64,000 nucleotides of DNA, from contig JABHGM010000001.1 in assembly GCA_018672055.1 (NCBI GenBank), positions 136,884 through 200,883 of the forward strand, written 5' to 3'. Positions within the stretch are counted from its first letter, which is position 1; each line of letters opens with the position of its first letter. Shown here in pieces: positions 8,028-60,022 of this stretch. A program made the translations under genes and the position numbers. The notes under the pieces are model-generated. The model worked only from the letters and a program-made list of their open reading frames with translations, did no database searches and was not told the origin of the DNA. This stretch comes from a bacterium (GTDB lineage Bacteria > Patescibacteriota > Patescibacteriia > UBA1558 > UBA10009).

Positions 8028-8044
8028 GTTATCATTTACCTATT

Positions 8045-9863: not shown

Positions 9864-9901
9864 AATAACCAATTATGGTTATTTTTTGATATAATAAAAA
9901 T

Positions 9902-43900: not shown

Positions 43901-43928
43901 TTCTGTTCTAAATAACTTAGGAGAAATC

Positions 43929-44453
43929 GTGTTTAACAAAATAGACATTCTTAAAAAAATCTTCGCGCTAGATAATACAAGATTTGCTTTATGTCTTTTG
44001 GGAGCAATATCTTTAGGGATCCTAACCGCCTTATTTTCTCAATGGATTATAAAAAATACCTGGTTCAATCAATACTTTGCTGCCATAATGATTTCAATTA
44101 TTGTGCTTTCAAGCATACTTTACATTCTGTTACTTAAAAAATCACCTAGACGTAATAAATATAGTCAAGTAATTTATTTAATAGGGGCTGTAACTATATT
44201 GATATTAATGTCTCTTGAAGTATTTTCAGATGCAAATCAAGTAAAAGAACGAATCGTAATTATTACACTTACACTATTCTATCTAGTAATAATAGTTTTC
44301 ATGATAGATAGCAAAGATGATCAAAAATTATTTCTTGCAAATCAACACATGATAAGTGAATTAATAAAAGAAGTAAAAGTTAGACTAGCTATTGAAGAAA
44401 CCAAAGAAGACGAAAAAGAACTAAAAAGACTACTCAATCTACAAAAACAGTAG
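43929..44453 (+). CDS. hypothetical membrane protein
   Basis: 174-aa ORF with 4 TM helices and a charged C-terminal tail. Confidence 0.35.
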   Translation: MFNKIDILKKIFALDNTRFALCLLGAISLGILTALFSQWIIKNTWFNQYFAAIMISIIVLSSILYILLLKKSPRRNKYSQVIYLIGAVTILILMSLEVFSDANQVKERIVIITLTLFYLVIIVFMIDSKDDQKLFLANQHMISELIKEVKVRLAIEETKEDEKELKRLLNLQKQ

Positions 44454-44479
44454 TAATGCTTAAAAATATTTTCTCTATA

Positions 44480-44508
44480 AACGCTCAGTCCAATTGAGCG
44501 TTTTTTAT
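44480..44508 (+). terminator. rho-independent terminator
   Basis: AACGCTCA-gtccaat-TGAGCGTT followed by TTTTT. Confidence 0.5.
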
Positions 44509-44536
44509 TTACTTAAAAGTCTGTTAAAATAGAGCT

Positions 44537-45880
44537 ATGTTAAACATCGTATTAATCATTCTATTCTACCTATTATTCGCCTATTTAAGCTCAAAAAACG
44601 TTAAATATGGCCTCTTTATGGTAACTGCGTTACTTCCATCATATTTGGTTAGATTTAACGTTTTTAACATACCAACTACACTTTTAGAAGGTATGATATA
44701 TATTCTATTTATCATTTGGCTATTTAAAATGAAGAAAGAATATAGTCTTACCTTTAACCCACTTAAGTGGTTTAAATCTAAAAAAGAATTATTTAATCCA
44801 GTACCTAATATATTAAAATTACCTTTAATTCTCTTTTTAGTAGCAGCTACTATCTCCGTATTTGTATCACCTAACTTTGAATCTGCTCTAGGTTTATGGA
44901 AAGCATATTTTATTGATGCCCTATTATATTTCATAATATTTATTTATACTATTAAATCTAAAATTGATATACAAAATATTATCAGAGTTTTAGGTTTAAC
45001 TGTTATTGTAATTGGTTTATTTGCTATATATCAAAAAATAACTGGCAATTTAATTCCTAACCCTTTTTGGGCAGACGAAAGTACTAGACGCATAACAACA
45101 TTTTTTGGTTATCCCAATGCTAATGCTTTATTTATATCACCTATACTTCTTTTAACTTTAATTAATTTAGTTAAAGACAAAAAAAAGTATTTATATCAAA
45201 TACTAAATATTTTAATCTTAATACTTGGCTTTCTAACTGTGCTTTGGGCAGAATCAACAGGAGCCTTACTTGGTATCCTAGCTGGTTTAATAACAATATT
45301 TATTTTCACTAAAAAAACTAGACTTATAACTCTTACTTTAATTGCATTTGTTTTAATTGTTTCATTATTTATACCGGGAGTTACCTCAAAGATAGAAAGT
45401 TCATATATTTCCATAAATGAAACTCATCTTTCTGCATCACCAACTGATTTACAACTAAGAACAAGCCAGTGGCGTGAAACATATGAGCTTTTAAAAACAA
45501 AACCTATCTTAGGTGCTGGCTTAGCTGGGTATCAAACATTAGTTGAGCCATATCATATAAATAAACATATTGAAATCTATTTATATCCACATAACTTCTT
45601 TCTAAACTTTTATGTTGAGATTGGTCTACTAGGATTAATTAGTATTTGCTGGCTTCTTATTATATACTACAAGCTATCATATAAGTCAGAATATTCTATT
45701 TATTCCATAATCTTAAGTTCAGTAATGATTACTATTCTAGTACATGGTTTAGTAGATGTACCATATTTAAAAAATGACTTAGCAATATTATTTTGGATTA
45801 TCTTTGGCTTAACAATCAGTATATATAATACACGGAGAGGTGCCGGAGTGGTTGAACGGGCTGCTCTCGAAAAGCAGTAG
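44537..45880 (+). CDS. O-antigen ligase/polymerase-like (Wzy_C family) polytopic membrane protein
   Basis: About 12 TM helices with a large extracytoplasmic loop near the C-terminal third, as in Wzy/WaaL proteins. The last ~15 codons overlap tRNA-Ser. Confidence 0.5.
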   Translation: MLNIVLIILFYLLFAYLSSKNVKYGLFMVTALLPSYLVRFNVFNIPTTLLEGMIYILFIIWLFKMKKEYSLTFNPLKWFKSKKELFNPVPNILKLPLILFLVAATISVFVSPNFESALGLWKAYFIDALLYFIIFIYTIKSKIDIQNIIRVLGLTVIVIGLFAIYQKITGNLIPNPFWADESTRRITTFFGYPNANALFISPILLLTLINLVKDKKKYLYQILNILILILGFLTVLWAESTGALLGILAGLITIFIFTKKTRLITLTLIAFVLIVSLFIPGVTSKIESSYISINETHLSASPTDLQLRTSQWRETYELLKTKPILGAGLAGYQTLVEPYHINKHIEIYLYPHNFFLNFYVEIGLLGLISICWLLIIYYKLSYKSEYSIYSIILSSVMITILVHGLVDVPYLKNDLAILFWIIFGLTISIYNTRRGAGVVERAALEKQ

Positions 45881-45923
45881 ACTTTTACTAGTCACGGGGG
45901 TTCGAATCCCTCCCTCTCCGCCA
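45834..45923 (+). tRNA. tRNA-Ser (CGA) with a long variable arm, CCA encoded
   Basis: GGAGAGG acceptor stem, anticodon loop CTCGAAA, a long extra arm, GGTTCGAATCC T-loop. Confidence 0.9.
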
Positions 45924-45989: not shown

Positions 45990-46514
45990 ATGGTTTTAGA
46001 AGAACAAAATATAATAGATATGTATGATAAATATGTAGATAAAATATATAATTTTGTTTACTATCGTACACATCATAAAGAAACTGCTGAGGATTTAACT
46101 AGCTTAATCTTTATTAAAGCTCTTGAAAACATTAGTAATTATAAAAAGGGAACTAATTTTAATGCTTGGATATATAGAATAGCTAGAAACACAATTATAG
46201 ATCATTATCGTACAAAACGAGAATTTAAAGATATTGATGATATTTGGGACTTAGCTTCTAGTGATGACCTAAGCTCAAAGATTGATAACAAAGAAACATT
46301 AAAAAAGATAGAAAAATACCTTAATACTTTGAAATCATTACAAAGAGATGTAATAATAATGAGAATCTGGGATAATCTATCTTTTAAAGAAATAAGTAAA
46401 ATTCTAAATAAAAGTGAAGGCTCTTTAAAAATGATGCTTAGCAGAAGCAGGAAAGAGTTAAAAGAAAATTATTTAACTATATTAATCCTCTTAATATCAA
46501 TAAAACATGGATAA
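45990..46514 (+). CDS. ECF (sigma-70 family group 4) RNA polymerase sigma factor
   Basis: Region 2 (YNFVYYRTHHKETAEDLTSLIFIKALENISNY...AWIYRIARNTIIDHYR) and region 4 (LQRDVIIMRIWDNLSFKEISKILNKSEGSLKMMLSRSRKELK). Confidence 0.8.
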   Translation: MVLEEQNIIDMYDKYVDKIYNFVYYRTHHKETAEDLTSLIFIKALENISNYKKGTNFNAWIYRIARNTIIDHYRTKREFKDIDDIWDLASSDDLSSKIDNKETLKKIEKYLNTLKSLQRDVIIMRIWDNLSFKEISKILNKSEGSLKMMLSRSRKELKENYLTILILLISIKHG

Positions 46515-47994
46515 AGAAATTAAAAACATTTTAAATGATCTATATAAAATAGATAAAAGTTTTAAAAAACATGAATCTGAATTAATTAAAACTATAAATG
46601 AATTAATAAATAATAAGCCAAAAATTATTATTAACAAAGATTTTAGAGAAGAATTAAAATCTAAACTCATTAAACAAGCTAAAAAGCTCAATAAAACAAA
46701 AATTAAAAAACTAAACTTAAACTTTATGAAATTAAGAAACTATTATTATGTATTCGGCAGTTTTGCTATTATTATCTTAATAGTTATATCATCTGTTTAC
46801 TACTCAAATCAAACAAGTAACCTAGCCTTTGGATTAAATATTGAATCTGTTTCAGAAAATGCCTTTGGATCTATTGAAAATAATCTTTCCGCTAATGAAA
46901 CCGTCGACAGGCAAGCATTGGGCATTGGCGCTGGAGGCGGAGGCGGTTATGCAACTGCTTCTTCAGAAATGGCTACTAAATCAGATACAGCTGTTTCTAT
47001 GATAGCCCCTGATTATATGAATAATTTTCAATACATATATGAAGGTGATGAAATAACTATCTCTGAAAATGAAATGGCAGTACTTAAAAAATCAAAAAAC
47101 ATTAATAATCTTAATCTTTCATCAATAATTAATAACTTTAATTTTGAAACTGTTAATTTAAATAAGTTTTCTGATGCAAAAGTCCAAAATATTTCGTTTG
47201 CTCAAGAAAAAGACTTTGGTTATCAAGTTTATCTTAATTTCTTAGAAGGCCAGGTTAGTCTTAACCAAAACTACAGCACTTGGCCACAAAATAATGAGCA
47301 TGGATGTATAGGTGATGTTTGTACAATAGAAATACAGCAAAGGACTTCTATTTCTGATGTTCCAGAAAACCAGGCTTTAATCAATATTGCAAATGATTTT
47401 TTAAATGAATATGACATAGATACTTCCCTATACGGCGAACCTGAAGTAGATAACAGATGGAAAATATATTATGAACAATCCAAAGATAAGGCTAGCTACT
47501 ATATTCCAGAAGTTATTAATGTGCTCTATCCTCTCAAAATCAATAACCAAATTGTATATAATGAAGGAGGCAATAAAGAGGGTTTAAATCTGGCTATTCA
47601 TATTAAATATAAGAAGGTTTATAGTCTACATAACCTAACCTCGCAGAATTATCAAAGTTCAATGTATAAAACTGAGACTGATATAAATAAAATTTTGGAT
47701 ATAGCAAGACGAGGAGGTAGAAATGTTTATACATATCAAAACAATCAGAAAGTTATTGAAGTTAAAATAGGAACACCAACACTATCATATGTAAAAATAT
47801 GGCAATATAATAATAATCAAAATGATGAATTATTGGTTCCAGCATTTATATTTCCCATCTTAGAAAAACCAGCTGTTAACTATTTTTACAAAGATAATAT
47901 AATAGTCCCTCTTATTAGTGATATGCTTGATTCAGATAATAATCCACGAGTAATGCCTATGCCTCTTGTTGAACCTGCAATAATGGAAAATTAA
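46507..47994 (+). CDS. putative anti-sigma factor (cytoplasmic N-domain, single TM, large extracytoplasmic domain)
   Basis: Overlaps the sigma factor by 8 nt. Has a ~80-aa N-terminal region, TM YYVFGSFAIIILIVISSVYY, and a ~395-aa outer domain. Assignment is by position and topology only. Confidence 0.35.
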   Translation: MDKEIKNILNDLYKIDKSFKKHESELIKTINELINNKPKIIINKDFREELKSKLIKQAKKLNKTKIKKLNLNFMKLRNYYYVFGSFAIIILIVISSVYYSNQTSNLAFGLNIESVSENAFGSIENNLSANETVDRQALGIGAGGGGGYATASSEMATKSDTAVSMIAPDYMNNFQYIYEGDEITISENEMAVLKKSKNINNLNLSSIINNFNFETVNLNKFSDAKVQNISFAQEKDFGYQVYLNFLEGQVSLNQNYSTWPQNNEHGCIGDVCTIEIQQRTSISDVPENQALINIANDFLNEYDIDTSLYGEPEVDNRWKIYYEQSKDKASYYIPEVINVLYPLKINNQIVYNEGGNKEGLNLAIHIKYKKVYSLHNLTSQNYQSSMYKTETDINKILDIARRGGRNVYTYQNNQKVIEVKIGTPTLSYVKIWQYNNNQNDELLVPAFIFPILEKPAVNYFYKDNIIVPLISDMLDSDNNPRVMPMPLVEPAIMEN

Positions 47995-48382: not shown

Positions 48383-48411
48383 TTGCTTATATACTTTAAA
48401 AATTGTATAAT
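48383..48411 (+). promoter_or_regulatory. sigma70-like promoter immediately upstream of galU
   Basis: TTGCTT (48383-48388), a 17-nt spacer, TGTATAAT (48404-48411). It would give a near-leaderless transcript for the ATG at 48424. Confidence 0.4.
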
Positions 48412-48423
48412 AATATCATATTT

Positions 48424-49287
48424 ATGACTAAAATTCGCAAAGCAATTATACCAGTAGCTGGTTTTGGAACTAGATTCCTACCTGCTTCAAAAGCTCAGCC
48501 TAAAGAAATGTTGCCTATAGTTGATAAACCAACTATTCAATACATTGTCGAAGGCTGTGTTAAGGCTGGAATAAAAGATATTATCTTTGTTACTTCAAGT
48601 AACAAACGTGCTGTTGAAGATCACTTTGATAATTCAACTGGTTTAGAAAATTGGTTAAAAAAACAAGGCAAAACTAAACAGTTAAATGAAATTAAAAAAA
48701 TTGCTCAGATGGCTAATTTTATTTACATCCGACAAAAAGGACCTATGGGTAATGGTACTCCTGTTTTAAATGCTGAAAAAATAATTGGTGATGAGCCCTT
48801 TATGGTTTTTTGGGGTGATGAATTCTATACTGGTCCTAAATCTTGGGTAAAACAAATGATTGATGTCTATGAAAAATATGGAGATCCAGTTCTAGCTGCT
48901 GTTAAAACTGATAAAGAAGGCCAGGCTCGTTACGGAATTATTGATGGCGTTAAAGTAGATAAAAATATTTATGAAATTAAAAAAGTAATTGAAAAACCTG
49001 GTCCTAAAAAAGCACCTTCTAAATTAGCTTCAGTTGGTGGTTATCTTTTAACACCTGATATATTCCCTATTTTAAAAAAATTAAAACCTAGTAAAGGTGG
49101 TGAAGTATGGCTAGCTGATGCTATTCATACACTAAGCAAACAAAGAGCTATGTATGCCTGTGAAATTGATGGTGAATTATATGATGCCGGAACTCTATTT
49201 GGTTGGTTAAAGGCTAATGTTGATCTAGCTTTAACTCATCCTAAAATAAGTAAAGAATTTAAAAAATATCTTAAAAAAATTAAGTAA
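48424..49287 (+). CDS. galU: UTP--glucose-1-phosphate uridylyltransferase
   Basis: MTKIRKAIIPVAGFGTRFLPASKAQPKEMLPIVDKPTIQYIVEG is the canonical GalU N-terminus. The ORF track starts at 48403, but that start would place the -10 element inside the coding sequence. Confidence 0.8.
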   Translation: MTKIRKAIIPVAGFGTRFLPASKAQPKEMLPIVDKPTIQYIVEGCVKAGIKDIIFVTSSNKRAVEDHFDNSTGLENWLKKQGKTKQLNEIKKIAQMANFIYIRQKGPMGNGTPVLNAEKIIGDEPFMVFWGDEFYTGPKSWVKQMIDVYEKYGDPVLAAVKTDKEGQARYGIIDGVKVDKNIYEIKKVIEKPGPKKAPSKLASVGGYLLTPDIFPILKKLKPSKGGEVWLADAIHTLSKQRAMYACEIDGELYDAGTLFGWLKANVDLALTHPKISKEFKKYLKKIK

Positions 49288-50660
49288 TGAGATTATTTTC
49301 AAACAAAATATTCGTTTTACTCTTAATTAGTACTTTCTTTTTAACTACTGGTTTATCTTGTAAATTATTTCCCGGTAAACAAGCTCCTGCTGCATATACC
49401 AAAGCTCAAACTTTAACTTTTTGGGGTGTCTGGGATACAAGTGATGATTTAGAAGTGTTGATAAAAGATTTTAAAGCTATACATCCAAATATTAAAATAA
49501 GTTATAAGAAGTTTAGATATCAAGAATATGAACAAAAACTTTTAGAAGCTTGGGCTGAAGACAGAGGTCCGGATATATATAGTATTCCAGCTACTTGGCT
49601 TAGAAAATATAAATCAAAAATTACTCCAATGCCGGATAGCACTAAACTTAGTTTTCAAGAAGTAAAAACTACTTTAGGTAAAACTGAAATAAATACCTAT
49701 GTTAGAGATATTCCAACCTACAGTGCTCGTGACATTAAAAATGAATTCGTTGATGTTGTCTATAATGATGTAATAATCGGTGGTAAAGTATTAGGTATAC
49801 CATTTAGCATGGATACTTTAGTTCTTTACTATAATAAAGATTTACTAGATGCTAGCGATATACCTGTACCTCCAACTGATTGGACTGAATTAAAAGAAGC
49901 TGTTAAAAAAATTACTAAAGTAAATAATAATAATGAAATATTACAAGCTGGTGTAGCTTTGGGTGTAGCTGACAATCTACCACATAGCGTTGATATAGCT
50001 TCTTTACTCATGATTCAAAATGGAGCACAAATGGTTGATGCTCGTGGTCAAGTTGCTTTCCATACTTCACCTACTAAAGATAAAAGTTATGCTCCAGGAC
50101 TCCAAGCTTTACAATTCTATCTAGACTTTGCAGATCCAATAAAAGAAGTATATTCTTGGAATAATAATCAAAATGATGCCTTTAATGCTTTTGTCTCGGG
50201 TAAACTTGCTATGTTCTACGGCTATTCATATCACTTACCTCTCATTAAAACTCAAGCTCCCAAATTAGAAATAGATATTGCCCCAATGACTCAGATAGAA
50301 GGTTCTCAAAAAAATATTAATTATACTGATTACTGGGTCTATACTGTTTCTCATAAATCAGCCAATACTGATGCTGCTTGGGGTTTTATAAACTTTGCTT
50401 CAGGTGACAAAGAAGTAACTAAGTATTTAAATCAAACTAAAAAACCTACAGCTTTAAGAAGTTTAATTACAAAGCAAAAAGCAGATCCAGAACTAGCAGT
50501 CTTTGCAGATCAAGTATTAACTGCTACCCATTGGTATAGAGGTAATGATGCTTTAAAAATGGAAGAATTCTTTAAAGAAATGTTAGACAGGCTACCTAAT
50601 GCAGCAGATCCTATTGAAATAATGCAAAACGCAGCTTTAAAAATAAATCAAACTTTATAA
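49287..50660 (+). CDS. ABC-type extracellular solute-binding lipoprotein (sugar-binding family 1), orphan
   Basis: Lipobox LTTGLSC, then TLTFWGVWDTSDD...LEAWAEDRGPDIYSIPATW typical of SBP_bac_1. No permease or ATPase genes are adjacent. The start overlaps the galU stop, and the stop lies 1 nt before the first pilin-like gene. Confidence 0.6.
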   Translation: MRLFSNKIFVLLLISTFFLTTGLSCKLFPGKQAPAAYTKAQTLTFWGVWDTSDDLEVLIKDFKAIHPNIKISYKKFRYQEYEQKLLEAWAEDRGPDIYSIPATWLRKYKSKITPMPDSTKLSFQEVKTTLGKTEINTYVRDIPTYSARDIKNEFVDVVYNDVIIGGKVLGIPFSMDTLVLYYNKDLLDASDIPVPPTDWTELKEAVKKITKVNNNNEILQAGVALGVADNLPHSVDIASLLMIQNGAQMVDARGQVAFHTSPTKDKSYAPGLQALQFYLDFADPIKEVYSWNNNQNDAFNAFVSGKLAMFYGYSYHLPLIKTQAPKLEIDIAPMTQIEGSQKNINYTDYWVYTVSHKSANTDAAWGFINFASGDKEVTKYLNQTKKPTALRSLITKQKADPELAVFADQVLTATHWYRGNDALKMEEFFKEMLDRLPNAADPIEIMQNAALKINQTL

Positions 50661-50661
50661 T

Positions 50662-51417
50662 ATGAAATTATTTATATTAATAATTACTTTGCTTATACTA
50701 TTAAACCCATTAGCAGCTGAGGCTAGTGTCTTACCTGCTTGTACAGCTACTGGTAATTGTGGTTTATGTGACTTTTTTGATACTTTCATTAATATTATAA
50801 ATTGGTTACTAGGCGTTGTTGGTGGAATTGCTCTTTTCTTATTTGGCTGGCATGGTTTTGGTATGATAACTAGCGCAGGTAACCCAGAAAAAGTAACTGC
50901 TGCCAGAAAAGGCATGATGCATACTGTTTTAGGAATAGTTATTATTATTTTCTCTTGGTTCTTAGTTACTATCATAATCGGCATATTACTATCAACACCT
51001 GGTTCTACAGGTGATGATGCTTTCAAAAATACTTTATTTAATAATGAAGCTGCTTGGAATCAATATTGTGTAGGTAAGACTGATATTAAAAAATGCCAAG
51101 GCAGAGGCCTAGGTAGTCCTTGTGGTAGTGGTAACTTCTGTTATCCTGACGATGGTAACAAAAAAGTACTAACTTGTACTAATTCAGCTTTTATAGATAA
51201 TAAAGATGGGGATGCTCTGATTGAGGTCAAGAATGCCTGTGAATATTGGGCCAATAGGCCACTCAACCCTAAAGAAGGTTTTCATAATAATCCATACACT
51301 GGCTATACTTGTTTAGAAAAAAAATTATGTGATCCATATGAAAATTTAGGTGCCAGTTATTGTGCTACTTCTGATGCTGAATGTTGTCTGACGCTCCCCT
51401 TTGATCCTTTTTTATAA
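50662..51417 (+). CDS. VirB2/TrbC-like (T4SS-type) pilin-family paralog 1, with a ~140-aa Cys-rich C-terminal module
   Basis: Signal peptide, a variable segment (ACTATGNCGLCDFF), the helix-loop-helix core LFGWHGFGMITSAGNPEKVTAARKG then IIIFSWFLVTIIIG, and a tail with about 15 Cys. Confidence 0.5.
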   Translation: MKLFILIITLLILLNPLAAEASVLPACTATGNCGLCDFFDTFINIINWLLGVVGGIALFLFGWHGFGMITSAGNPEKVTAARKGMMHTVLGIVIIIFSWFLVTIIIGILLSTPGSTGDDAFKNTLFNNEAAWNQYCVGKTDIKKCQGRGLGSPCGSGNFCYPDDGNKKVLTCTNSAFIDNKDGDALIEVKNACEYWANRPLNPKEGFHNNPYTGYTCLEKKLCDPYENLGASYCATSDAECCLTLPFDPFL

Positions 51418-51431
51418 TAATATAAATAAAT

Positions 51432-51827
51432 ATGATAAATAAAAAAAACATTTCAATTCTTTTCCTAGCTATTCTAATGGCTACTCTAATCATTCCTCTA
51501 CCTTTAACTCTAAATGCTGCTGGTAACTGTGGTAACAGTTATTCTGAAGACGATTCAGGAAGTTGTTTAGAAAATCCTTTAGGCTCAGAAACAATTGATC
51601 TGCCAACTTTATATGGTAGGTTACTTTTCTACGGTGTCCTTTTTGTAACTGGTGGTGTAGCTTTAATTATGTTTGTAATAGGTGGCTTTATGTGGATGAC
51701 TGCAGCAGGTAATCCTGAGAAAATTAAAAAAGGTAAAGACACATTAATGTGGGCTATCTTGGGAATAATATTGATATTTTCTAGTTATTCCATACTTCGT
51801 GCTATCTTTGAAATATTACAATTTTAA
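51432..51827 (+). CDS. VirB2/TrbC-like pilin-family paralog 2
   Basis: Signal peptide, a GNCG-containing variable segment, then the core GGFMWMTAAGNPEKIKKGKDTLMWAILGIILIF. Confidence 0.55.
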   Translation: MINKKNISILFLAILMATLIIPLPLTLNAAGNCGNSYSEDDSGSCLENPLGSETIDLPTLYGRLLFYGVLFVTGGVALIMFVIGGFMWMTAAGNPEKIKKGKDTLMWAILGIILIFSSYSILRAIFEILQF

Positions 51828-51961
51828 ATTATCTAGTTTTATTATTAGAATTATTGTATAATATAACTAGGTTATCCACATTTAAAATAAATTTAAATAA
51901 TATTAATTAAAGTAAATTAAAACAAAAACAAAATTTTAATTTACATTTAAGGAGCAAGTCT

Positions 51962-52351
51962 ATGAAAAAATACTTTTCAAAAAAAAGTATCATGGCTTCA
52001 GCAGCAACTATTCTTTGGGTAGTCCCAATGATAGTTGGCGCACAAGTTGATGCTGACTTTGGATTAGGTTATCCTGCAGCAACTGGCTTGGGCACAAACG
52101 ACTTAAAAGACACTATTATAGCTGTACTAAATGTACTGCTTGGTTTCTTAGGCATAATTGCCGTAATTGTAATCTTACTTGGTGGTTTCAAATGGATGAC
52201 AGCCGCTGGTAATGAAGACAAAGTCGCTGAAGCTAAAAAACTACTTGGCGCTGGTATTGTCGGTATAATAATTATATTATCCGCCTATGCAATTGCCACT
52301 TACGTTATTACTCAGATTCAAACCTCGACCGGTGGCACTTTAATTGAGTGA
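51962..52351 (+). CDS. VirB2/TrbC-like pilin-family paralog 3
   Basis: Strong SD AAGGAG. Signal peptide, then the core GGFKWMTAAGNEDKVAEAKKLLGAGIVGIIIILSAY. Confidence 0.55.
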   Translation: MKKYFSKKSIMASAATILWVVPMIVGAQVDADFGLGYPAATGLGTNDLKDTIIAVLNVLLGFLGIIAVIVILLGGFKWMTAAGNEDKVAEAKKLLGAGIVGIIIILSAYAIATYVITQIQTSTGGTLIE

Positions 52352-52450
52352 TAAACTTTAAAAAACTATAGTTATTTAAAGTCTAGACGTTTTCCTCCTC
52401 TGTTTGAGGGGGAATGGCTTAGACTGTAATGACAACTTATACAAAATTAA

Positions 52451-52864
52451 ATGTTTGAAAAACTATACAAACAGTTAATAATTCGGGCATTATTCTTTGC
52501 CCTATTTTTGTATTTGGTAATACCTTTTAATTTACAAGCTTCCCCTGCTGGTGATATTGCTACTCAAATATTAGAAGATACAGCTGTTGAAGCTAAATTA
52601 ATTAATTCAGCAGACAATGCTTTAAATATCTTTGAAATCTCTGGCTTTGTAATTAATATAGTTTTAGGATTTGTAGGTATAATATTTCTAGTCCTTATAA
52701 TTGCTGGTGGCTATATGTGGATGACTGCAGGAGGTAATGATGAAAAAGTAACTAAAGGTAAATCTCTTTTAACTCAATCAATTATAGCTTTAGCTGTTAT
52801 TCTAAGCGCTTTCCTATTAACCAACTTTGTTATAATAAGATTAATGACTAATCTATGGGGTTAA
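52451..52864 (+). CDS. VirB2/TrbC-like pilin-family paralog 4
   Basis: Core GGYMWMTAGGNDEKVTKGKSLLTQSIIALAVILSAF. Confidence 0.55.
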   Translation: MFEKLYKQLIIRALFFALFLYLVIPFNLQASPAGDIATQILEDTAVEAKLINSADNALNIFEISGFVINIVLGFVGIIFLVLIIAGGYMWMTAGGNDEKVTKGKSLLTQSIIALAVILSAFLLTNFVIIRLMTNLWG

Positions 52865-53526
52865 TTAAAAAAAACTTATTTTTAATTCTAATACTATGTT
52901 TTTTAATTATTCCTTTTTATACTCAAGCTGAAGCTGCTTGTCCAAAAAGTCTTAGTATTCAAGAATGTGTTAAATGGGGTCTAGAACAAACTAGCGCTGA
53001 AGCAGGCTATACATTTAATGAAAATCTTGATTCTCAAAGTATTTCAGAAACTGTAGGTAATATTATTTCAAATATTTTAACCTTTTTAGGTGCTTTAGTC
53101 TTGATAATGATTATTACGGCTGGTTTTCAATGGTTAACTGCCCAAGGCGATGAAGAGAAGCTAAACACTGCTAAATCTAGACTGAAGAATGCATTAATTG
53201 GTTTATTAATAATTGTAGCTGCATTTGCTATTACTACATTTGTAACTAGTAATCTAAAAAATATTATTGATGATGCTACAATACCTGATAATCCTGCTAA
53301 TTATATATGCTCTAATTATGATTATGATGTCTGTATTGATAATGTTGACAGAGCTTGTGGTTATTGGATTCCTGATCAAGGATGCTATCCAAACCCTTTT
53401 GACTGTGATTTACGATATCCTTCAGATTGTGAAATACCTGATCCTGATACAGGCCATGATGTTTGTTTGGGTGAAGGCGGTAACTGTATAATAACGCCCC
53501 AAGGCGATAGTTGTTATTGTAATTAA
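52855..53526 (+). CDS. VirB2/TrbC-like pilin-family paralog 5, with a Cys-rich C-terminal module
   Basis: Core AGFQWLTAQGDEEKLNTAKSRLKNALIGLLIIVAAF, then an ~85-aa tail with 12 Cys (CSNYDYDVCIDNVDRACGYW...CYCN). Overlaps paralog 4 by 10 nt. Confidence 0.55.
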   Translation: MGLIKKNLFLILILCFLIIPFYTQAEAACPKSLSIQECVKWGLEQTSAEAGYTFNENLDSQSISETVGNIISNILTFLGALVLIMIITAGFQWLTAQGDEEKLNTAKSRLKNALIGLLIIVAAFAITTFVTSNLKNIIDDATIPDNPANYICSNYDYDVCIDNVDRACGYWIPDQGCYPNPFDCDLRYPSDCEIPDPDTGHDVCLGEGGNCIITPQGDSCYCN

Positions 53527-53527
53527 T

Positions 53528-54073
53528 ATGAATAAAAAATATATAATTCTGTTTCTAACCTTAATAATCTTACTTATTCCTGTTTTAACATACTCCGCAA
53601 ATATTACAGATATAATAGAAGGGTTAGATAAAACAGCAGAAAAATCACTTTTAATAGATCCTAATGAAGAGGCTACTACAATATATGATATGATTGGACG
53701 TATTCTATTTTTTACTTTAAGCCTTCTTGGTATTATTTTCTTAGGTTTAATTATATTTGGTGGTATTGGTTGGTTAACAGCTGCTGGCAATGAAGAAAAG
53801 ATAACTAAAGCTAAAGGTTTGATGTCTAATGCTTTAATTGGTTTAATAATAATAATTGCTGCATATACTATAGCTAACTTTGTAATATTTACTTTAGCTG
53901 ATAAAATAACTGAGGGCAATGATTCATTATGTATAGAAGCTTCAGGAGAATGCCAAAACCATGCATTGGGTGCCACAGATTGCACAATTAATGGTTCTCC
54001 TGGTACTTATGCTTCTAATTATTGTGGAAGTCAATCAAATGATTCTCTTTATCGTTGCTGTATAGCTAACTAA
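53528..54073 (+). CDS. VirB2/TrbC-like pilin-family paralog 6, with a Cys-rich C-terminal module
   Basis: Core GGIGWLTAAGNEEKITKAKGLMSNALIGLIIIIAAY, then a ~60-aa tail with 8 Cys. Starts 1 nt after paralog 5. Confidence 0.55.
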   Translation: MNKKYIILFLTLIILLIPVLTYSANITDIIEGLDKTAEKSLLIDPNEEATTIYDMIGRILFFTLSLLGIIFLGLIIFGGIGWLTAAGNEEKITKAKGLMSNALIGLIIIIAAYTIANFVIFTLADKITEGNDSLCIEASGECQNHALGATDCTINGSPGTYASNYCGSQSNDSLYRCCIAN

Positions 54074-54079
54074 TAATTT

Positions 54080-54589
54080 ATGTTTTTAAATTTAAAAAAA
54101 TCTTTATTTATTCTAATAATAAGTTTTTTAATACTAAGTCCTTCTTTATTATTCGCTCAATCTCCAGAGGATCCTAGTAATCAACCTAATTATACTTATA
54201 AGCAAATTTGTAAATGGGGTGATAATTTAACTGATTGCTTAGAAGAAAATTATAATACTATTACTGGGACTGAGAATGATGATTTTGAAAAAGTAACTTC
54301 TGCAAGTTTATCTACAAAAATAGGAATTATCATTTCATACGTTTTAGCATTTTTAGGAGTTATTTTCTTAGTTTTAATTGTAATTTCTGGATTTCAATGG
54401 TTAACAGCTGGTGGGAATGAAGAAACTGTAACTACTTCTAGAAAAAGAATTATTAATGCTGTTGTTGGCCTCATTATTATTCTCTCTGCCTACGTTATTA
54501 CTGCTTTTGTTACTGATAGGATAGAAAGATCTATTGATAAAACAAATACTGTTAGTATTAATTTGCCTAGTGACTATTTATCTATTTAA
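54080..54589 (+). CDS. VirB2/TrbC-like pilin-family paralog 7
   Basis: Core SGFQWLTAGGNEETVTTSRKRIINAVVGLIIILSAY. Confidence 0.55.
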   Translation: MFLNLKKSLFILIISFLILSPSLLFAQSPEDPSNQPNYTYKQICKWGDNLTDCLEENYNTITGTENDDFEKVTSASLSTKIGIIISYVLAFLGVIFLVLIVISGFQWLTAGGNEETVTTSRKRIINAVVGLIIILSAYVITAFVTDRIERSIDKTNTVSINLPSDYLSI

Positions 54590-54604
54590 TATTTAATTAT
54601 TTAT

Positions 54605-54976
54605 ATGACTAAAAAAATTATAATTTCATTACTAATACTAATTATCTCTAGTTTTTTAATAATCCCCGCTCTAGCTCAAACAAATATAAATACCAATCTT
54701 GAAGCAGCTGGAGAAGGTGCTAAGTATAATATAGACGTTGATGATAATACTATACCTGAAATAATTGGTAAAGTAGTGGCTACTCTACTGGCTTTTGTCA
54801 CCTCAATTTTTATGATGATGGTTGTTTTCTCTGGCGTTCAATGGATGGTTGCTGGAGGTAATGAAGAAAAAATTACTAAAGCTCGTGGTAGATTAATAAG
54901 TAGTATTATTGGCGTAGGTATAACTGCTGCTGCTTATTTCATAACCTGGTTAATTACTGAAACTTTACTAAAATAA
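54605..54976 (+). CDS. VirB2/TrbC-like pilin-family paralog 8
   Basis: Core SGVQWMVAGGNEEKITKARGRLISSIIGVGITAAAY. Confidence 0.55.
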   Translation: MTKKIIISLLILIISSFLIIPALAQTNINTNLEAAGEGAKYNIDVDDNTIPEIIGKVVATLLAFVTSIFMMMVVFSGVQWMVAGGNEEKITKARGRLISSIIGVGITAAAYFITWLITETLLK

Positions 54977-54979
54977 AAT

Positions 54980-55648
54980 ATGAAATCATTTCTTTTAATA
55001 ATTGCTGTTTGTTTCTTAATCCTAGCACCCTTAACTGTGTCTAATGCTTTAAATTTAGGCCAAGAAACATATTTAGAAAGTTTAGCTGGTACAGCCGGCT
55101 ATCAAATTGATAGTGTTCAATCTAATACCTATCTTGATTCGACAATTGGTAAACTACTAGCAAGTATATTTACTTTAGTTGGTATTTCTTTCTTATCACT
55201 TATCATTGTTTCTGGATTTCAATGGATAAACGCTCATGGTAATGAAGAAAGCGCTAAAAAAGCTAAAGATCGAATAATCCATGCTACTATTGGATTAATT
55301 ATTATTGCTTCTTCCTATTTAATCTCCTTCTTCATATATAATTCAATAAATTCCTCAATTACTGGCGAGGTTAATAACTTTGTTCCAGAACCAGGCTTAG
55401 AATGTATAGATAATACAAATTGTATTGGGCATGAAAATGGACCTTACTGTAACTATAATCAAGCTACTGGTTATTGTGGTGGGTGTACAGATGACGATGA
55501 TTGTTCAAGCCCTACTCCTGAATGTGTACGTCCTCTTATTGGCCCTAGCTCATGTCATGAATGCGTAATAGATGCAGATTGTTCTGATAATTTTGGTCCC
55601 AGTTTTGTTTGTGGTAATTTCGAATGTATAGAAAATAATGATTTTTAA
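54980..55648 (+). CDS. VirB2/TrbC-like pilin-family paralog 9, with a Cys-rich C-terminal module
   Basis: Core SGFQWINAHGNEESAKKAKDRIIHATIGLIIIASSY, then a ~100-aa tail with 13 Cys, including the repeated C-x-E-C...D-x-C motifs CTDDDDCSSPTPEC and CHECVIDADC. Confidence 0.55.
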   Translation: MKSFLLIIAVCFLILAPLTVSNALNLGQETYLESLAGTAGYQIDSVQSNTYLDSTIGKLLASIFTLVGISFLSLIIVSGFQWINAHGNEESAKKAKDRIIHATIGLIIIASSYLISFFIYNSINSSITGEVNNFVPEPGLECIDNTNCIGHENGPYCNYNQATGYCGGCTDDDDCSSPTPECVRPLIGPSSCHECVIDADCSDNFGPSFVCGNFECIENNDF

Positions 55649-55653
55649 TTAAT

Positions 55654-56631
55654 ATGATAAAAAAATATAAAAAAATAATATTAAGCTCTCTAATCCTACT
55701 TTTTTTAATACTGGGAATAAATGTTTTAGCACAAGGTGGTTTTCAACAAGAGTTAATAAATAATATTGCTAGTACTACTGAAATTGTTGGTCAAGGACCA
55801 GGTTACAATACAAACGCTCAAGGTGAGGATTTTTTTGGAGGTATTTTAATTAAAATATTTGGTTATGGAATTAGTTTCTTAGGCGTTTTCTTCATGTTAC
55901 TTATTGTCTACTCTGGATTTCAATGGATGTTTTCTAGTGGTAATGAAGAAAAGGTTACTCAAGCTAAAACTAGAATTACTCAAGCAGTGACAGGTTTAGT
56001 TATTGTCTTAGGTGCTTTTATAATCTCCTATGCTATATTCTCATTCTTGACTACAGAATATTTAGAAACCCCTTCCTCTGGCATTCAAGCTCCTGATGGT
56101 TATCAAGAGCAAATAGCTTGTAGTAATTCTAATAGTGATACGCCTCCTGAATGCGCTGATAGAGGAACTAGAATATATTGTTCTAGCTCTGGTAATTGTG
56201 TTGAATGTTTAGACGACGCACGTTGTGCAGAAGCTCCATTTGAACCGCTCGGCTTAACATCTTGCGACCCAACTTGGAATGTTTGTACTTTCGATTTAGA
56301 TCATACATGTGCTGAAATTACCAACGCTGGCTTATGCATATCTAATGAAAGTTGTAATTGGGCACTGACACCGTCTAACCCAACATGGGAGACAGGTGTA
56401 TGTGTTAATTCAAATGAATATAATTGCACAACTGGACAATGCCCTCAAGATAGGCCATATTGCATAAATAATAATCAACCAGAAGGAGAATATAGCTGTC
56501 ATGAATGCAGCCCTGGTATAGATGCTTCATGTGGTCTTTTAAAAAACTGCACACAGCCATTTCTTGAAGGTGGTGAAGGTATCAATGAAGATGATTATCA
56601 TCTCTACATTTGTACAATTTTTGGTTTTTAA
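55654..56631 (+). CDS. VirB2/TrbC-like pilin-family paralog 10, with a long (~185-aa) Cys-rich C-terminal module
   Basis: Core SGFQWMFSSGNEEKVTQAKTRITQAVTGLVIVLGAF, then a tail with about 24 Cys including CVECLDDARC and CHECSPGIDASC, the same motif seen in paralog 9. Confidence 0.55.
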   Translation: MIKKYKKIILSSLILLFLILGINVLAQGGFQQELINNIASTTEIVGQGPGYNTNAQGEDFFGGILIKIFGYGISFLGVFFMLLIVYSGFQWMFSSGNEEKVTQAKTRITQAVTGLVIVLGAFIISYAIFSFLTTEYLETPSSGIQAPDGYQEQIACSNSNSDTPPECADRGTRIYCSSSGNCVECLDDARCAEAPFEPLGLTSCDPTWNVCTFDLDHTCAEITNAGLCISNESCNWALTPSNPTWETGVCVNSNEYNCTTGQCPQDRPYCINNNQPEGEYSCHECSPGIDASCGLLKNCTQPFLEGGEGINEDDYHLYICTIFGF

Positions 56632-56643
56632 ATAATAAAACAT

Positions 56644-57051
56644 ATGAAAAAAACAATATTAAAAATTTCTAGCCTTTCCCTTATTATAGGATTAGGCTTT
56701 ACAAAAATAGCTTTGGCTATGCCAACGTTAAATCCTTTAGCCAGAATGAAACACACTGCTGATGTTATTGGTCTGTCCACTGTAAATGTTCATCCAGCTG
56801 AAGTAGCAGCTAATATTATTGCCATCATACTCGGATTAGTAGGTATTATATTTTTTGTGATGATACTTTTTTCTGGTTATGAGCTTATGACTTCTGGTGG
56901 TAACGAAGAAGTAGTGGGTAGAGCTAAAAAAAGATTACAATATGCAATTATTGGAATTGTAGTAATCTCTCTTTCATACATAATAACTATTTATGTTTCT
57001 GAATTAATAAACAGAGCTACATGTGAAGGTTATTATTGTATTAATGAATAA
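56644..57051 (+). CDS. VirB2/TrbC-like pilin-family paralog 11
   Basis: Core SGYELMTSGGNEEVVGRAKKRLQYAIIGIVVISLSY, with the conserved Trp replaced, and a short C-terminal CEGYYCINE. A hairpin and T-run (AGACTGACTTCAT/ATGAAGTCAGTCT) follow the stop. Confidence 0.5.
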   Translation: MKKTILKISSLSLIIGLGFTKIALAMPTLNPLARMKHTADVIGLSTVNVHPAEVAANIIAIILGLVGIIFFVMILFSGYELMTSGGNEEVVGRAKKRLQYAIIGIVVISLSYIITIYVSELINRATCEGYYCINE

Positions 57052-57125
57052 TATATTATTTAAAGACTGACTTCATAAATGAAGTCAGTCTTTTTTATTT
57101 ACTAAATACTTGTTAAACTAGTAAC

Positions 57126-59045
57126 ATGATTAATTATATTAAAGAAAAACAAATTAAAATATTAATAATATCTATTATTACCTATATTACTATTTTTTCT
57201 TTAATTTGCTACTGGAAGTACCTTAATTTTGGCTATAATGGCTTAGATTTGACGATATTTAACCAAGTTTTCTTTAATTCGGTACATGGTGACTTTTTTA
57301 GGTTTACTATCCATCCTGGGCTATATTTAGGCGATCACTTTACGCCTATTATTCTATTACTTCTGCCATTATATTACTTTTTTCAAAGCCCAATTACTCT
57401 GCTTATTCTACAAACTATTATCCTAGCTTTATCTGCTTGGCCAATATATTTAATTGCTAAAAAATATTTACCTTCTGCCTGGCCACTTTTTATTTCCTTA
57501 GCCTGGCTTTTTAATCCATTCGTACAAAATGTAAATCTTTTTGAATTTCATTTACTTCCTTTTGCAATATTTTTAATATTCTGGACGTTTTATTTTTATT
57601 TAAAAAATAACTTTAACTTATTTCTTCTATTCTCTCTTCTGAGCATGTTGGTTAGAGAAGATGTGGCTTTAGTAATTATTATGATGGCTGTACTGGCTCT
57701 TTTTGAAAAAAGAAAATGGTTTTGGTTTATTATTCCAGGGGTAATAAGTATTATCTATTTCTTAACCTCTATGTCTATAATCGGACATTTTACTCCTGAC
57801 GGACAATACAAATTTCTTTACTACTACAATTTTTTAGGTAACAGCTTTAAAGAAATAATTATAACTGCTTTAACTAAACCTTGGCTTATTATTAAACAAA
57901 TTGCATCATGGCATAACTTATTTTTTACTCTAACGCTTTTTATGCCCTTTGCTTATCTATTAAGACTTAAATATTTGATACCAGCTTTTTTAATCTACCT
58001 CCAACTAATCATTGGGAGTGCTAATGACTCAGTTTTGGTCCTTAGTATGCACTATGTTTCTTTATTACTGCCCCCAATATTTATTGCTTTTATTATGTTT
58101 TTGAATAGATTCCTATTAACTGATAACTATTTAAAATTAAAAAGCCTTCTTCAATTAAATAATTCATTATTTATATTAATTCTTTCAACAATTGTATTGT
58201 ATAGTTCTTTAACTATGGGCCCTCTGCCCTCTGTTGCTAAAAATTTAATAAGCCCCGGTTGGTCAGAAGAAAAACTATTAATTAAAAAAGAATTAGTTAA
58301 AAATATTTCACCTAGTGATAATTTAGGAGCTACTTATGAATTTCTATCACCCATGTCGTCAAGGCATAATCTCTATTCAATGCATTATGCGTTCTTAGGT
58401 AAATTACAATTTTCTAATACAGATTATGAGCTACCATTAGACGTTGATACATTGCTTATTGATTTTAATGATTTTATATACTATGAACTACAATACCCTG
58501 ACGAGCCAACTTGGCAATCATATTATCAAAAAGGTGATGATAGTATAAGGAAGTTAATTGAAGAACGTAGTTTTGGGATAACTAAAATTAATGACTTATA
58601 TGTTTTAATGAAAAAAGATGTAAATAATAATATTAAGTTATATGAAATAGTTGACGATACTAAGTTTGATGAAGTGGATTATAAAAAAATAGGTGAAAAT
58701 ATTTCATTCCTGGGTTATGAAAATAATTTAGATCATATTTCACTATATTTTAAATCAAATTCTAAACTTAATGAAGACTATCAAATAAGATTAATTGGTA
58801 AAAATAATAATGAAGAAGTTTTTAATAGATATTTACCACTAGCCTACGGCTTATACCCCACCAGAGAGTGGGGAAAAGATGAAATTATTAAAATTAATTA
58901 TTATTTGAATTTAAAAGATGTATCTTCTTTAGAATTAAATTTAGTTAATCTTCAAGGCTACTACACTTTAAATAACCTAGGAACCATGATAAATAAAATA
59001 ACCCAAGAAAATACCCTGGGTTATGTTAAAATCGATTTAGATTAA
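57126..59045 (+). CDS. large polytopic membrane protein with a C-terminal extracytoplasmic domain; GT-C-fold glycosyltransferase-like (DUF2079-like) candidate
   Basis: About 11 TM helices in the first 360 aa. After TM1 comes a long first external loop with Asp/His residues (GYNGLDLTIFNQVFFNSVHGDFFRFTIHPGLYLGDHF) as in GT-C enzymes, then a ~280-aa soluble C-terminal domain. Confidence 0.3.
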   Translation: MINYIKEKQIKILIISIITYITIFSLICYWKYLNFGYNGLDLTIFNQVFFNSVHGDFFRFTIHPGLYLGDHFTPIILLLLPLYYFFQSPITLLILQTIILALSAWPIYLIAKKYLPSAWPLFISLAWLFNPFVQNVNLFEFHLLPFAIFLIFWTFYFYLKNNFNLFLLFSLLSMLVREDVALVIIMMAVLALFEKRKWFWFIIPGVISIIYFLTSMSIIGHFTPDGQYKFLYYYNFLGNSFKEIIITALTKPWLIIKQIASWHNLFFTLTLFMPFAYLLRLKYLIPAFLIYLQLIIGSANDSVLVLSMHYVSLLLPPIFIAFIMFLNRFLLTDNYLKLKSLLQLNNSLFILILSTIVLYSSLTMGPLPSVAKNLISPGWSEEKLLIKKELVKNISPSDNLGATYEFLSPMSSRHNLYSMHYAFLGKLQFSNTDYELPLDVDTLLIDFNDFIYYELQYPDEPTWQSYYQKGDDSIRKLIEERSFGITKINDLYVLMKKDVNNNIKLYEIVDDTKFDEVDYKKIGENISFLGYENNLDHISLYFKSNSKLNEDYQIRLIGKNNNEEVFNRYLPLAYGLYPTREWGKDEIIKINYYLNLKDVSSLELNLVNLQGYYTLNNLGTMINKITQENTLGYVKIDLD

Positions 59046-60022
59046 ATCTTATCCCTAAACTTCAACCACTTGCTCATAATCTTTGGTGCTAAATAGATAG
59101 CAATAAACGCTACTAATAATCCAGCTAGCAGATCTATTAAGTAATGCCATCTTAAATAAAGAGTAGAAAGCCAAACAGACGTTACTAATGGAATATGTAG
59201 ATAATATAAATACTTAAGGTATTTATTTTTTCTTAAATATTTCCAAGCAAAGTATAACCAAATAAAAGTTACTCCAAAGTGAAGACTTGGAAAACAATGC
59301 AAAGCCCTATTTTCAATCAAATATTCCATTACCATAGTATTGGGAGTATAGTATGGCTCGCCATTTAAAGTAATAAGTTCAGTTGTTAAAACCTCCTTTT
59401 GAGCTAGTAATGGACCATCACAAGGCACTAAAACATACCCTGCTAGTCCTAAAAAATTAGTTATTATGACAGTCAATAAAAGAGTTTCAAAAACTCTTTT
59501 ACTTTTAAAAATAGAATATATTATTGGGTTCACAAAATAAAACACAAAATATAAAGTGTAAGCAAAAGCAAACCAACTAGTTAGGCCTGGAGTAATTAAT
59601 TTTTCAAATAAAACTGCAATGTCGTTACCAAATAATAGTGCTCTATCAATGCTTATTAATACTTCATCATAATTATTTGAATTAAAAAATCTTGTTATAT
59701 CATGAATTGAATCGTATATGTATAAAAAAATAAAAAAAGGAATTATTTGAATAATAAAATCCTTAGTAGCAATTAAGGCCTCTTTAAATATTTCTAATAT
59801 CTTTATATCTTCTTTAAATCTAGTAAACAATATAAGAGTTAGTTTAATTAAAGAAAAGCCTAAAATTATATAAATAAATAAAATAATTCCACTAATCTCA
59901 TTAATCGAATTAATTGGCAAATTAAAAACTTTAAACGCTAAGAGAGTTAATGTTAAACAAATAAAACTAACCCAGAATACTGGGTTAAAAAAATTTAATA
60001 TAAACTGCTTGTATTTTTCCAT
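59042..60022 (-). CDS. PAP2-superfamily-like membrane phosphatase/phosphotransferase candidate
   Basis: Polytopic. CFPSLHFGVT resembles the PSGH motif, and LRWHYLIDLLAG resembles the SRxxxxxHxxxD motif. Confidence 0.35.
   Translation of the reverse strand: MEKYKQFILNFFNPVFWVSFICLTLTLLAFKVFNLPINSINEISGIILFIYIILGFSLIKLTLILFTRFKEDIKILEIFKEALIATKDFIIQIIPFFIFLYIYDSIHDITRFFNSNNYDEVLISIDRALLFGNDIAVLFEKLITPGLTSWFAFAYTLYFVFYFVNPIIYSIFKSKRVFETLLLTVIITNFLGLAGYVLVPCDGPLLAQKEVLTTELITLNGEPYYTPNTMVMEYLIENRALHCFPSLHFGVTFIWLYFAWKYLRKNKYLKYLYYLHIPLVTSVWLSTLYLRWHYLIDLLAGLLVAFIAIYLAPKIMSKWLKFRDKI

Follow-up and report, generated by a model that had tools for sequence, protein, structure and literature searches.

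VirB2-like pilin genes of type IV secretion systems (T4SSs) form tandem arrays in Patescibacteria, and 441 such arrays of 2-11 genes have been reported from 383 assemblies, with a mutual identity of 25% on average and 54% at most (PMC12102498). Only 1135 of 1948 assemblies had pilin genes close to virB4, and host-range or antigenic versatility was proposed for the arrays (PMC12102498). That study also refers to the pilin array of Southlakia epibionticum, which is essential, and to that of TM7x (the 'Sec-secreted array'). In Ca. Southlakia epibionticum ML1, an array of six pilins is essential and lies within the T4SS cluster (PMC10633639, PMC12857230), and the role of the T4SS in these bacteria has been called completely unknown (PMC11665869). 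Herein, we describe an array of eleven pilin-like genes at 50,662-57,051 of a 64,000-nucleotide stretch of DNA (contig JABHGM010000001.1 of assembly GCA_018672055.1), referred to below as the window. The proteins of this array are annotated at NCBI merely as 'hypothetical protein'. The array is a further example of the published kind of feature, and the first-pass annotation of this DNA had rightly stated that comparable pilin paralog sets of the candidate phyla radiation (CPR) were already reported (PMC12102498).

Like the VirB2-like arrays of Quinonero-Coronel et al. (2025), the array consists of tandem same-strand PF18895 genes with low mutual identity, and it lies on the chromosome near dnaA (~13 kb here). 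It differs from the published arrays in having no adjacent virB4 or other T4SS genes and in being preceded by a gene for a solute-binding protein (SBP) lipoprotein and by galU. One privileged copy (copy 3) and cysteine-rich ectodomains on 5 of the 11 copies also set it apart, and neither is mentioned in the literature searched.

More distant systems share parts of this layout. VirB2/TrbC T-pilins (PF04956) resemble the array proteins in having a leader peptide and two hydrophobic helices, which are joined by a short charged loop with a conserved Trp ahead of it. The loop of the array proteins is ~7 residues longer and acidic/basic (G-N-E-E-K-V-x-K-A-K), the paralogs are many, long C-terminal ectodomains occur, and the host is apparently monoderm, in contrast to the Gram-negative setting of VirB2/TrbC T4SSs. 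Mbov_0395/ICE_MMCAP2_0565 of the Mycoplasma integrative and conjugative element (NF045849) has a similar two-helix layout in a wall-less or monoderm setting, but it is single-copy, has an 80-residue core and belongs to a mobile element. In Enterococcus pCF10, PrgF is a two-helix protein proposed to form the pilus of a monoderm MPF_FATA-type T4SS (bioRxiv 10.64898/2025.12.18.695078), and Patescibacteria VirB4 is related to this class. Unlike the array pilins, PrgF is 75 aa long, single-copy and without ectodomains. The VirB2 clusters of Bartonella and Anaplasma phagocytophilum likewise consist of tandem divergent VirB2 genes in a host-associated bacterium, but their copies are few, mutually similar and read as antigenic variants, whereas the copies in the window are old and position-specific.

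Eleven T4SS_pilin genes in tandem

The list of open reading frames (ORFs) contained eleven consecutive + strand ORFs, in exact agreement with the eleven tandem same-strand genes of the first-pass annotation. The intergenic spacings were, in order, 14, 134, 99, -10, 1, 6, 15, 3, 5 and 12 nt. The gap sizes quoted earlier were therefore correct apart from a '100-nt' gap, which measures 99 nt. The genes and the terminator that closes the array are listed below with their PF18895 scores; L numbers denote the related loci introduced in the next section.

50662..51417, + strand, pilin 1: 251 aa; 47.7 bits; short Cys-containing N-terminal segment; 141-aa tail with 11 Cys
51432..51827, + strand, pilin 2: 131 aa, 'class A'; 42.9 bits; TrbC E 3.2e-4
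51962..52351, + strand, pilin 3: 129 aa, without Cys or tail; 37.0 bits; TrbC E 3.8e-4
52451..52864, + strand, pilin 4: 137 aa; 27.8 bits; position-4 orthologues in L005/L007 49-50% identical
52855..53526, + strand, pilin 5: 223 aa; 39.7 bits; 92-aa tail with 10 Cys
53528..54073, + strand, pilin 6: 181 aa; 36.3 bits; 60-aa tail with 6 Cys
54080..54589, + strand, pilin 7: 169 aa; 32.6 bits; long N-terminal variable segment with 2 Cys
54605..54976, + strand, pilin 8: 123 aa, the shortest; 35.2 bits; orthologues 50-59% identical
54980..55648, + strand, pilin 9: 222 aa; 33.7 bits; 102-aa tail with 12 Cys and C-x-x-C-x-D-x-D-C-like repeats
55654..56631, + strand, pilin 10: 325 aa; 29.0 bits; 193-aa tail with 20 Cys
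56644..57051, + strand, pilin 11: 135 aa; 39.1 bits; short C-terminal C-x-x-x-x-C tail
57062..57103, + strand, intrinsic terminator closing the array: canonical, 14-bp stem followed by a T-run

All eleven copies exceeded the gathering threshold of PF18895 T4SS_pilin (27.8-47.7 bits against 26.6), and the precomputed Pfam labels concurred. Database homologues of pilin 6 carried the same domain in 36 of 36 cases. Because 11 of 11 copies exceed the gathering score of a single Pfam family, the array is not a product of chance. This result bears out the earlier identification as VirB2/TrbC-like T4SS pilins, and the accession that had been named for the CPR pilin family, PF18895, is the correct one. 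The other family named for the check, TrbC/VirB2 (PF04956), was matched below threshold only, as the second match in four copies (best E = 3e-4). Its top scores of 21.3 and 21.0 bits (E ~3e-4; copies 2 and 3) fell short of the 27.9-bit threshold, compared with 63 bits for a genuine VirB2. In an hhalign comparison, the CPR profile (A2) matched five plasmid VirB2/TrbC sequences with a probability of 43% and an E value of 2.5e-4 over 60 columns, with the first transmembrane helix (TM1), loop and second helix (TM2) in register and the conserved Trp aligned. This alignment is suggestive of remote homology to VirB2/TrbC, not proof of it. NF045849 was the top NCBIfam match of the ten copies scanned (all except copy 10) at 20-42.5 bits. 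Only copy 5 passed its cut-off of 40 bits (42.5 bits), and the nine other scanned copies scored 20-36 bits.

Whole-protein identity between the paralogs was 20-39% (mean 30%) in a MAFFT alignment. Each copy begins with a signal-like hydrophobic helix and a variable segment of 10-50 aa, after which come a helix, a charged loop and a second helix. The first core helix ends in G-[FYIV]-x-W-[ML]-T-A-x-G-N-E-E-K in the alignment, and hydropathy indicated a signal-type helix plus two transmembrane helices. AlphaFold predicted a hairpin for copy 3 (H48-80/H85-123, pLDDT >90) and also a confident hairpin for copy 10. Alignment, hydropathy and AlphaFold thus agree with the four-part layout described in the first-pass annotation, whose two example peptides were located in copies 3 and 7. 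Two of its details did not hold. The core, called strictly conserved, has only M1 and two Gly invariant and is 24-49% identical among copies (mean 36%), and the S/A-A-Y motif assigned to the end of the second helix sits within TM2. The predicted fold is compatible with a pilin, not diagnostic of one. We regard the PF18895 membership and the topology of the array proteins as very probably correct.

Gene order, copy 3 and cysteine-rich tails

To place the array among its relatives, one genome per GTDB species was scanned with a four-paralog alignment, and the best 80 of 570 relatives were analysed. Array sizes were counted with a hidden Markov model of the hairpin core on raw ORFs, where overlapping ORFs may inflate a few counts. 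Same-strand pilin arrays of 5-16 genes were the rule in these loci (16 in L025, 15 in L019), so that the number of eleven copies, which had seemed noteworthy, is ordinary. Arrays of 12-16 PF18895 genes were seen in L025, L019, L022, L023 and L065, compared with a published maximum of 11 (PMC12102498).

The window copies best matched the genes at the same position in L005, L006 and L007, with 39-70% identity compared with 20-39% between paralogs. For pilin 1, a 'class A' member and the first gene after the SBP gene, the best matches were the position-1 genes of these three loci (40-45% identity). Position-2 orthologues of pilin 2, which has 2 Cys in its N-terminal variable segment, were 51-60% identical, and the L005 position-7 orthologue of pilin 7 was 56% identical. 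The class order 1, 2, 3 and then a series like copies 4-11 recurred across loci from 80 species. We found the array DNA to lack long near-identical repeats, as well as any convincing invertible elements or inverted repeats around promoters; only the DNA of the conserved motifs recurred, at 60-77% identity. The exact sequence of copy 10 recurred in 137 blocks of the assembly collection. The organism's proteins were identical in 130-157 blocks of that collection and in several metagenome-assembled genomes (MAGs) at NCBI, and their 90% clusters comprise just 1-4 sequences. Copy 3 had no identical match in the GTDB collection with one genome per species, the best being 69%. Positional orthology, the kept order, the lack of long repeats and the recurrent identical copy 10 together argue that the array is old and stable and that its members are individually kept. 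The history read from these comparisons does not fit that of a fast-switching repertoire.

Copy 3 stands between the two long gaps of the array, an isolation that the first-pass annotation had overlooked. Three signals surround it.

51850..51881, + strand, promoter region of pilin 3: ATTATTGTATAAT (51850-51862) as -10 box and GTTATCCACAT (51871-51881) as invariant block
51949..51954, + strand, Shine-Dalgarno (SD) sequence of pilin 3, AAGGAG: duplex free energy with the 16S 3' end -7.4 kcal/mol
52371..52433, + strand, stem-loop after pilin 3, without U-tract: -27 kcal/mol, z = -4.3

Copy 3 was the most conserved member, with an orthologue identity of 67-70% overall and 79-84% in the core, compared with 36-64% in the cores of the other copies. 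Its isolation recurs in the related loci, where the gaps beside the copy-3-like gene had a median of ~90 nt upstream and 88 nt downstream, compared with 6 nt elsewhere. ATTATTGTATAAT and GTTATCCACAT were invariant in the window, L005, L006 and L007 amid a poorly conserved AT-rich spacer, and both were also present in L010. As a genome-wide enriched promoter word, TTGTATAAT was rejected (4 matches compared with 3.1 expected), and the promoter call therefore rests on invariance across species only. The GTTATCC(A/C)CAT block lies 8-25 nt downstream of the copy-3 -10 box in five loci (window 51871-51881, L005 ~9872-9882, L006, L007 and L010). This block could be an operator or an element of the 5' untranslated region.

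Translation signals also single out copy 3. The other ten pilin genes and their neighbours had SD free energies of -2.7 kcal/mol or weaker, leaving copy 3 with the sole strong SD in the array. Over 75 loci, the median SD free energy was -17.8 kcal/mol for copy-3-like genes compared with -2.7 kcal/mol for 519 other pilins (Mann-Whitney p = 6e-31), and in 62 of the 75 the strongest SD within the array belonged to the copy-3-like gene. The gaps 3' of the copy-3-like gene had folding z-scores below -2 in 92% of 53 loci (median -6.1), compared with 35% for the gaps 5' of it (median -1.1), all on mononucleotide shuffles. We also considered a canonical intrinsic terminator and rejected it: the window hairpin has no U-tract, and a T-rich tract followed the copy-3-type hairpin in only 3 of 48 relatives. 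The hairpin is a putative stabiliser of the mRNA 3' end or an attenuator.

Top conservation, a -10 box, the sole strong SD and the 3' hairpin led us to propose copy 3 as the major pilin. On these signals, a major role for copy 3, with the remaining copies as accessory subunits, seems somewhat favoured. Major and minor subunits with differential mRNA stability are familiar from the pap and fim chaperone-usher operons and from VirB2 plus VirB5 in T4SSs. As in pap and fim, an abundant structural subunit would be followed by a stem-loop and then by weakly translated accessory or adhesin subunits, although the protein families and machines are unrelated. We use this parallel as an analogy, regulatory and architectural only.

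Five copies carry long cysteine-rich C-terminal tails, which the first-pass annotation had not noticed. The tails of copies 1, 5, 6, 9 and 10 span 60-193 aa and contain 6-20 Cys. Among 594 pilins of the related loci, 21% had tails of at least 40 aa, and 86% of those had at least 4 Cys. The Cys number was even in 90% of the Cys-rich tails, and Cys made up 8.4% of tail residues compared with 1.5% in all ORFs. Even Cys counts and high Cys content fit extracytoplasmic disulfides. Between orthologues, the tails were the fastest-evolving part (28% identity), followed by the N-terminal segments (36%) and the core (55%).

A Pfam search of the Cys-rich tails gave no match, and a word-index search with the copy 10 tail returned only itself. 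An exhaustive phmmer search of 1.84 billion representative proteins found six other relatives of the copy 10 tail. Five of them are 197-312 aa long and aligned from about residue 130, the beginning of the tail. The sixth has 751 aa and matched in 11 stretches. AlphaFold gave the copy 10 tail a pLDDT of 30-67, and it is not confidently foldable. Pilin-array proteins in relatives reach 540 aa.

With the loop predicted to be cytoplasmic, the tails would be extracytoplasmic. Conjugative pili of solved structure turn the loop towards the lumen and both termini outward (bioRxiv 10.64898/2025.12.18.695078). Given this geometry and their extracytoplasmic position, the tails are candidate domains for host or ligand contact. 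That the Cys-rich tails together with the SBP mediate such contact is a tentative proposal, and we would sooner doubt it than rely on it.

Neighbouring genes and genomic setting

Two genes precede the array on the same strand.

48403..49287, + strand, galU-like UTP--glucose-1-phosphate uridylyltransferase: TIGR01099 325 bits compared with a cut-off of 326.8; NTP_transferase match
48403-48411, + strand, TTGTATAAT, a -10-like box just before the alternative ATG at 48424 of the galU-like gene
49287..50660, + strand, orphan solute-binding protein of carbohydrate type, SBP_bac_1/SBP_bac_8: Pfam 108 bits; weak GanS/MalE/UgpB similarity

The SBP has a lipoprotein-like signal (LTTGLSC), and its stop codon lies 1 nt ahead of the start of pilin 1. 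We read this gene and the first pilin gene as coupled in translation. Genes for an ABC permease or ATPase were absent beside it. In 59 of the 80 pilin-selected loci, an SBP homologue (35-66% identical) lay immediately 5' of the array on the same strand, mostly at a distance of -4 to +15 nt, and about nine of the 21 loci without an adjacent SBP were truncated contigs. Sampling by SBP gave the same picture, as 5 of 5 homologues (45-52% identity; L091-L095) were directly followed by PF18895 genes. In Falkowbacteria-type loci, the SBP and pilin 1 genes stand together, and a copy-3-led array follows ~4.5 kb off with unrelated genes between. A galU homologue was found 5' of the SBP gene in 44-45 of the 80 related loci. 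The linkage of SBP and pilin array is not mentioned in the literature searched. The SBP lipoprotein is a conserved partner of the array and perhaps serves in ligand or host-glycan capture or as an assembly aid.

The nearest relatives of the pilins, the SBP and galU were MAGs of Patescibacteria (Komeili-, Uhr-, Magasanik-, Falkow- and Kerfeldbacteria and the 'Parcubacteria group'), and the host is probably ABY1/Komeilibacteria-like. Patescibacteria-like loci with an SBP-pilin array and low GC content also appeared under the title 'uncultured Gammaproteobacteria bacterium' (L006, L009-L011, L013 and many others), and a few further such records are titled Vicinamibacterales, Binatia or Acutalibacteraceae. 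These records probably stem from MAG bins that are mislabelled or contaminated.

The window is housekeeping chromosome with a GC content of ~30%, and it carries 16S rRNA, tRNAs, rpoB/C, recA, ftsK, polA, uvrB, SMC, murein and FemAB genes. Its sequence is also part of a 416,887-bp ENA contig, and the longest contig with the array proteins measures 963 kb (NCBI proteins MBT4495402-MBT4495413 and siblings). The cluster dnaN-dnaA-rpmH-rnpA-yidD-yidC lies ~11-15 kb downstream of the array (L004 15906-20279; ~68.3-72.7 kb in window coordinates, past the end of the window), which places the array near the origin and transcribed towards dnaA. The cumulative GC skew peaked near 56 kb in the window, a poor fit to an origin at ~71 kb.

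Genes of glycan type surround the arrays, in the window at 42482-45880, 48403-49287 and 57126-60022, and likewise in L093, L094 and L095. The recurrent set comprises a Wzx-like flippase, Wzy_C, galU, GT2, PMT_2/MptA-type GT-C enzymes, DUF2079 and PAP2. The Wzy_C protein weakly resembles the pilin O-oligosaccharyltransferase TfpM (E 6.5e-7, far under the cut-off). In view of these genes, glycosylation of the pilins is a possibility.

Several further observations were made in the window. The 16S rRNA gene (6398-8196) is followed by tRNA-Phe, tRNA-Ile and protein genes, and with no 23S gene in the other 56 kb the rRNA genes are unlinked. A 509-aa protein at 19770-21299 combines dockerin type I, Por_Secre_tail (C-terminal sorting of the type IX secretion system) and FlgD_ig-like domains, which was unexpected in a presumed monoderm CPR bacterium. 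Between the gene for a sigma factor of the extracytoplasmic function (ECF) type and galU, a 495-aa ORF (46507-47994) had no Pfam or NCBIfam match and a homologue in 1 of the 80 loci. The final 47 nt of the Wzy_C-family ORF at 44537-45880 lie within the tRNA-Ser(CGA) gene at 45834-45923 on the same strand. An HTH_25 plus Glucodextran_B-domain protein is encoded at 38415-39101, ~12 kb upstream of the array, and Falkowbacteria-type loci carry its homologue directly after the first pilin gene (L069 5501-6160; L092 11839-12507; L093 11815-12483).

A filament model and its alternatives

Our preferred reading is a T4SS_pilin module in which copy 3 is the major subunit, the other copies are accessory and the SBP is a partner, and we assign it a probability of roughly 0.6. 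Each precursor would consist of an N-terminal signal that is cleaved off, an exposed segment of variable sequence and a membrane hairpin of two helices. The short charged loop (G-N-E-E-K...) would lie on the cytoplasmic side, which would put both termini outside the cell. If conjugative pili of solved structure are a guide, a VirB4/VirB6-type machine from elsewhere in the genome would pull the hairpins out of the membrane and pile them into a tube. The loop would then face the lumen of the tube, and the variable N-terminal segments and C-terminal tails would lie on the filament exterior. Copy 3 would be the major subunit with its own conserved promoter, and its mRNA segment would be stabilised or partly insulated. 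Copies 1-2 and 4-11 would be weakly translated minor or accessory subunits, five of which would display disulfide-rich ectodomains that probably contact host or substrate. The SBP would be co-transcribed with the array.

The formation of a T4SS-dependent filament by these proteins is reasonably probable. Family membership and Saccharibacteria genetics argue for it, and the absence of machinery nearby weakens it. A more specific version holds that ABY1-type Patescibacteria, as monoderm cells, have a heteropolymeric T4SS-type filament line composed of the SBP, one or two class A pilins, a single very highly expressed major pilin and a series of weakly translated minor pilins, in which the ectodomains (possibly with the SBP) replace the missing VirB5 or adhesin and set the host or ligand. 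We put this version forward as speculative, with the odds somewhat against it. None of the points of such an ordered heteropolymeric filament was found in the literature searched. The ancient ordered array, the privileged copy 3, the Cys-rich ectodomains and the SBP linkage seem to be undescribed.

Several results weigh against this preferred reading. The VirB2 similarity of the array proteins stays below family thresholds. Structural searches with the hairpin returned generic helical hairpins only and were uninformative, because any helical hairpin matches, and a profile search of PDB sequences returned nothing, solved pilins being undetectable by sequence. PrgF was tried as the closest relative and rejected, since pCF10 PrgF gave an hhalign probability of 6% and no detectable similarity. 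The scanned ORFs of the 64-kb window included no T4SS machinery gene (VirB4, VirD4 or others). Such genes were likewise missing from ~10 kb of upstream and ~9 kb of downstream flank and from the common neighbours of the 80 related arrays. The first-pass annotation had likewise seen no VirB4, VirB6 or VirD4 gene in the window, and no recognisable T4SS gene turned up there or in the flanks. The assignment of major and minor subunits rests on sequence signals alone, and the hairpin z-scores of the related loci come from mononucleotide shuffles. To our knowledge, no solved structure offers a precedent for a tightly packed VirB2-type lattice that bears ectodomains of 100-190 aa.

Some of these points would be met by hairpins that do not polymerise and instead serve as anchors displaying ectodomains, forming an adhesion or nutrient-capture complex with the SBP independently of a T4SS. 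Arrays of this lineage are linked to SBP and glycan genes, not to virB4, with no T4SS gene nearby. It is also hard to see how tails that reach 193 aa here, and proteins that reach 540 aa in relatives, would be placed on a pilus lattice. However, the array proteins share their Pfam family with Saccharibacteria pilins that are encoded inside an essential T4SS cluster (PMC10633639), and they show remote in-register similarity to VirB2. The tail-less, highly conserved copy 3 with its strong predicted expression also resembles a polymer subunit, and we consider such anchors unlikely. Holins, bacteriocin immunity proteins or transporter fragments, which would make the array a set of unrelated small membrane proteins, gave only weak sub-threshold Pfam matches (Holin_9 E 0.17, Colicin_V 0.0036, MatE 4.5e-5). 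No such family reached threshold or recurred across copies, while PF18895 was passed by all eleven, and there was no phage or bacteriocin context. The confident match to an unrelated family that the first-pass annotation had named as grounds for dropping the pilin assignment was thus not found, and this explanation is effectively refuted.

It has also been proposed that arrays of this kind are a repertoire for antigenic or host-range variation (PMC12102498), in which eleven interchangeable pilins would be used in different circumstances, as proposed for the VirB2 paralogs of Bartonella and Anaplasma. The lower identity of the exposed N-terminal segments and tails relative to the core agrees with this proposal. 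Contrary to the diversified repertoire suggested in the first-pass annotation, the copies are not interchangeable but position-specific orthologues with one privileged, probably major, member, each with a same-position orthologue, and their class order is kept over 80 species. The array lacks the long near-identical repeats or invertible elements that switching or gene conversion would use, and variation at the population level is small (copy 10 identical in 137 blocks; 90% clusters of 1-4 sequences). The expression signals favour a single copy. We therefore judge a switching repertoire to be quite improbable.

Few systems have been shown to be essential for epibiotic life in a cultivated Patescibacterium, and the T4SS with its pilins is one of them. 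The interest of this locus lies in its ordered major/minor architecture, its Cys-rich ectodomains and its kept SBP partner, as they appear at the level of sequence. If the major/minor model is true, it would argue against a simple reading of such arrays as antigenic variation. One structural member, accessory host-facing members and an SBP would then provide concrete targets for the filament, the host-binding ectodomains and the ligand.

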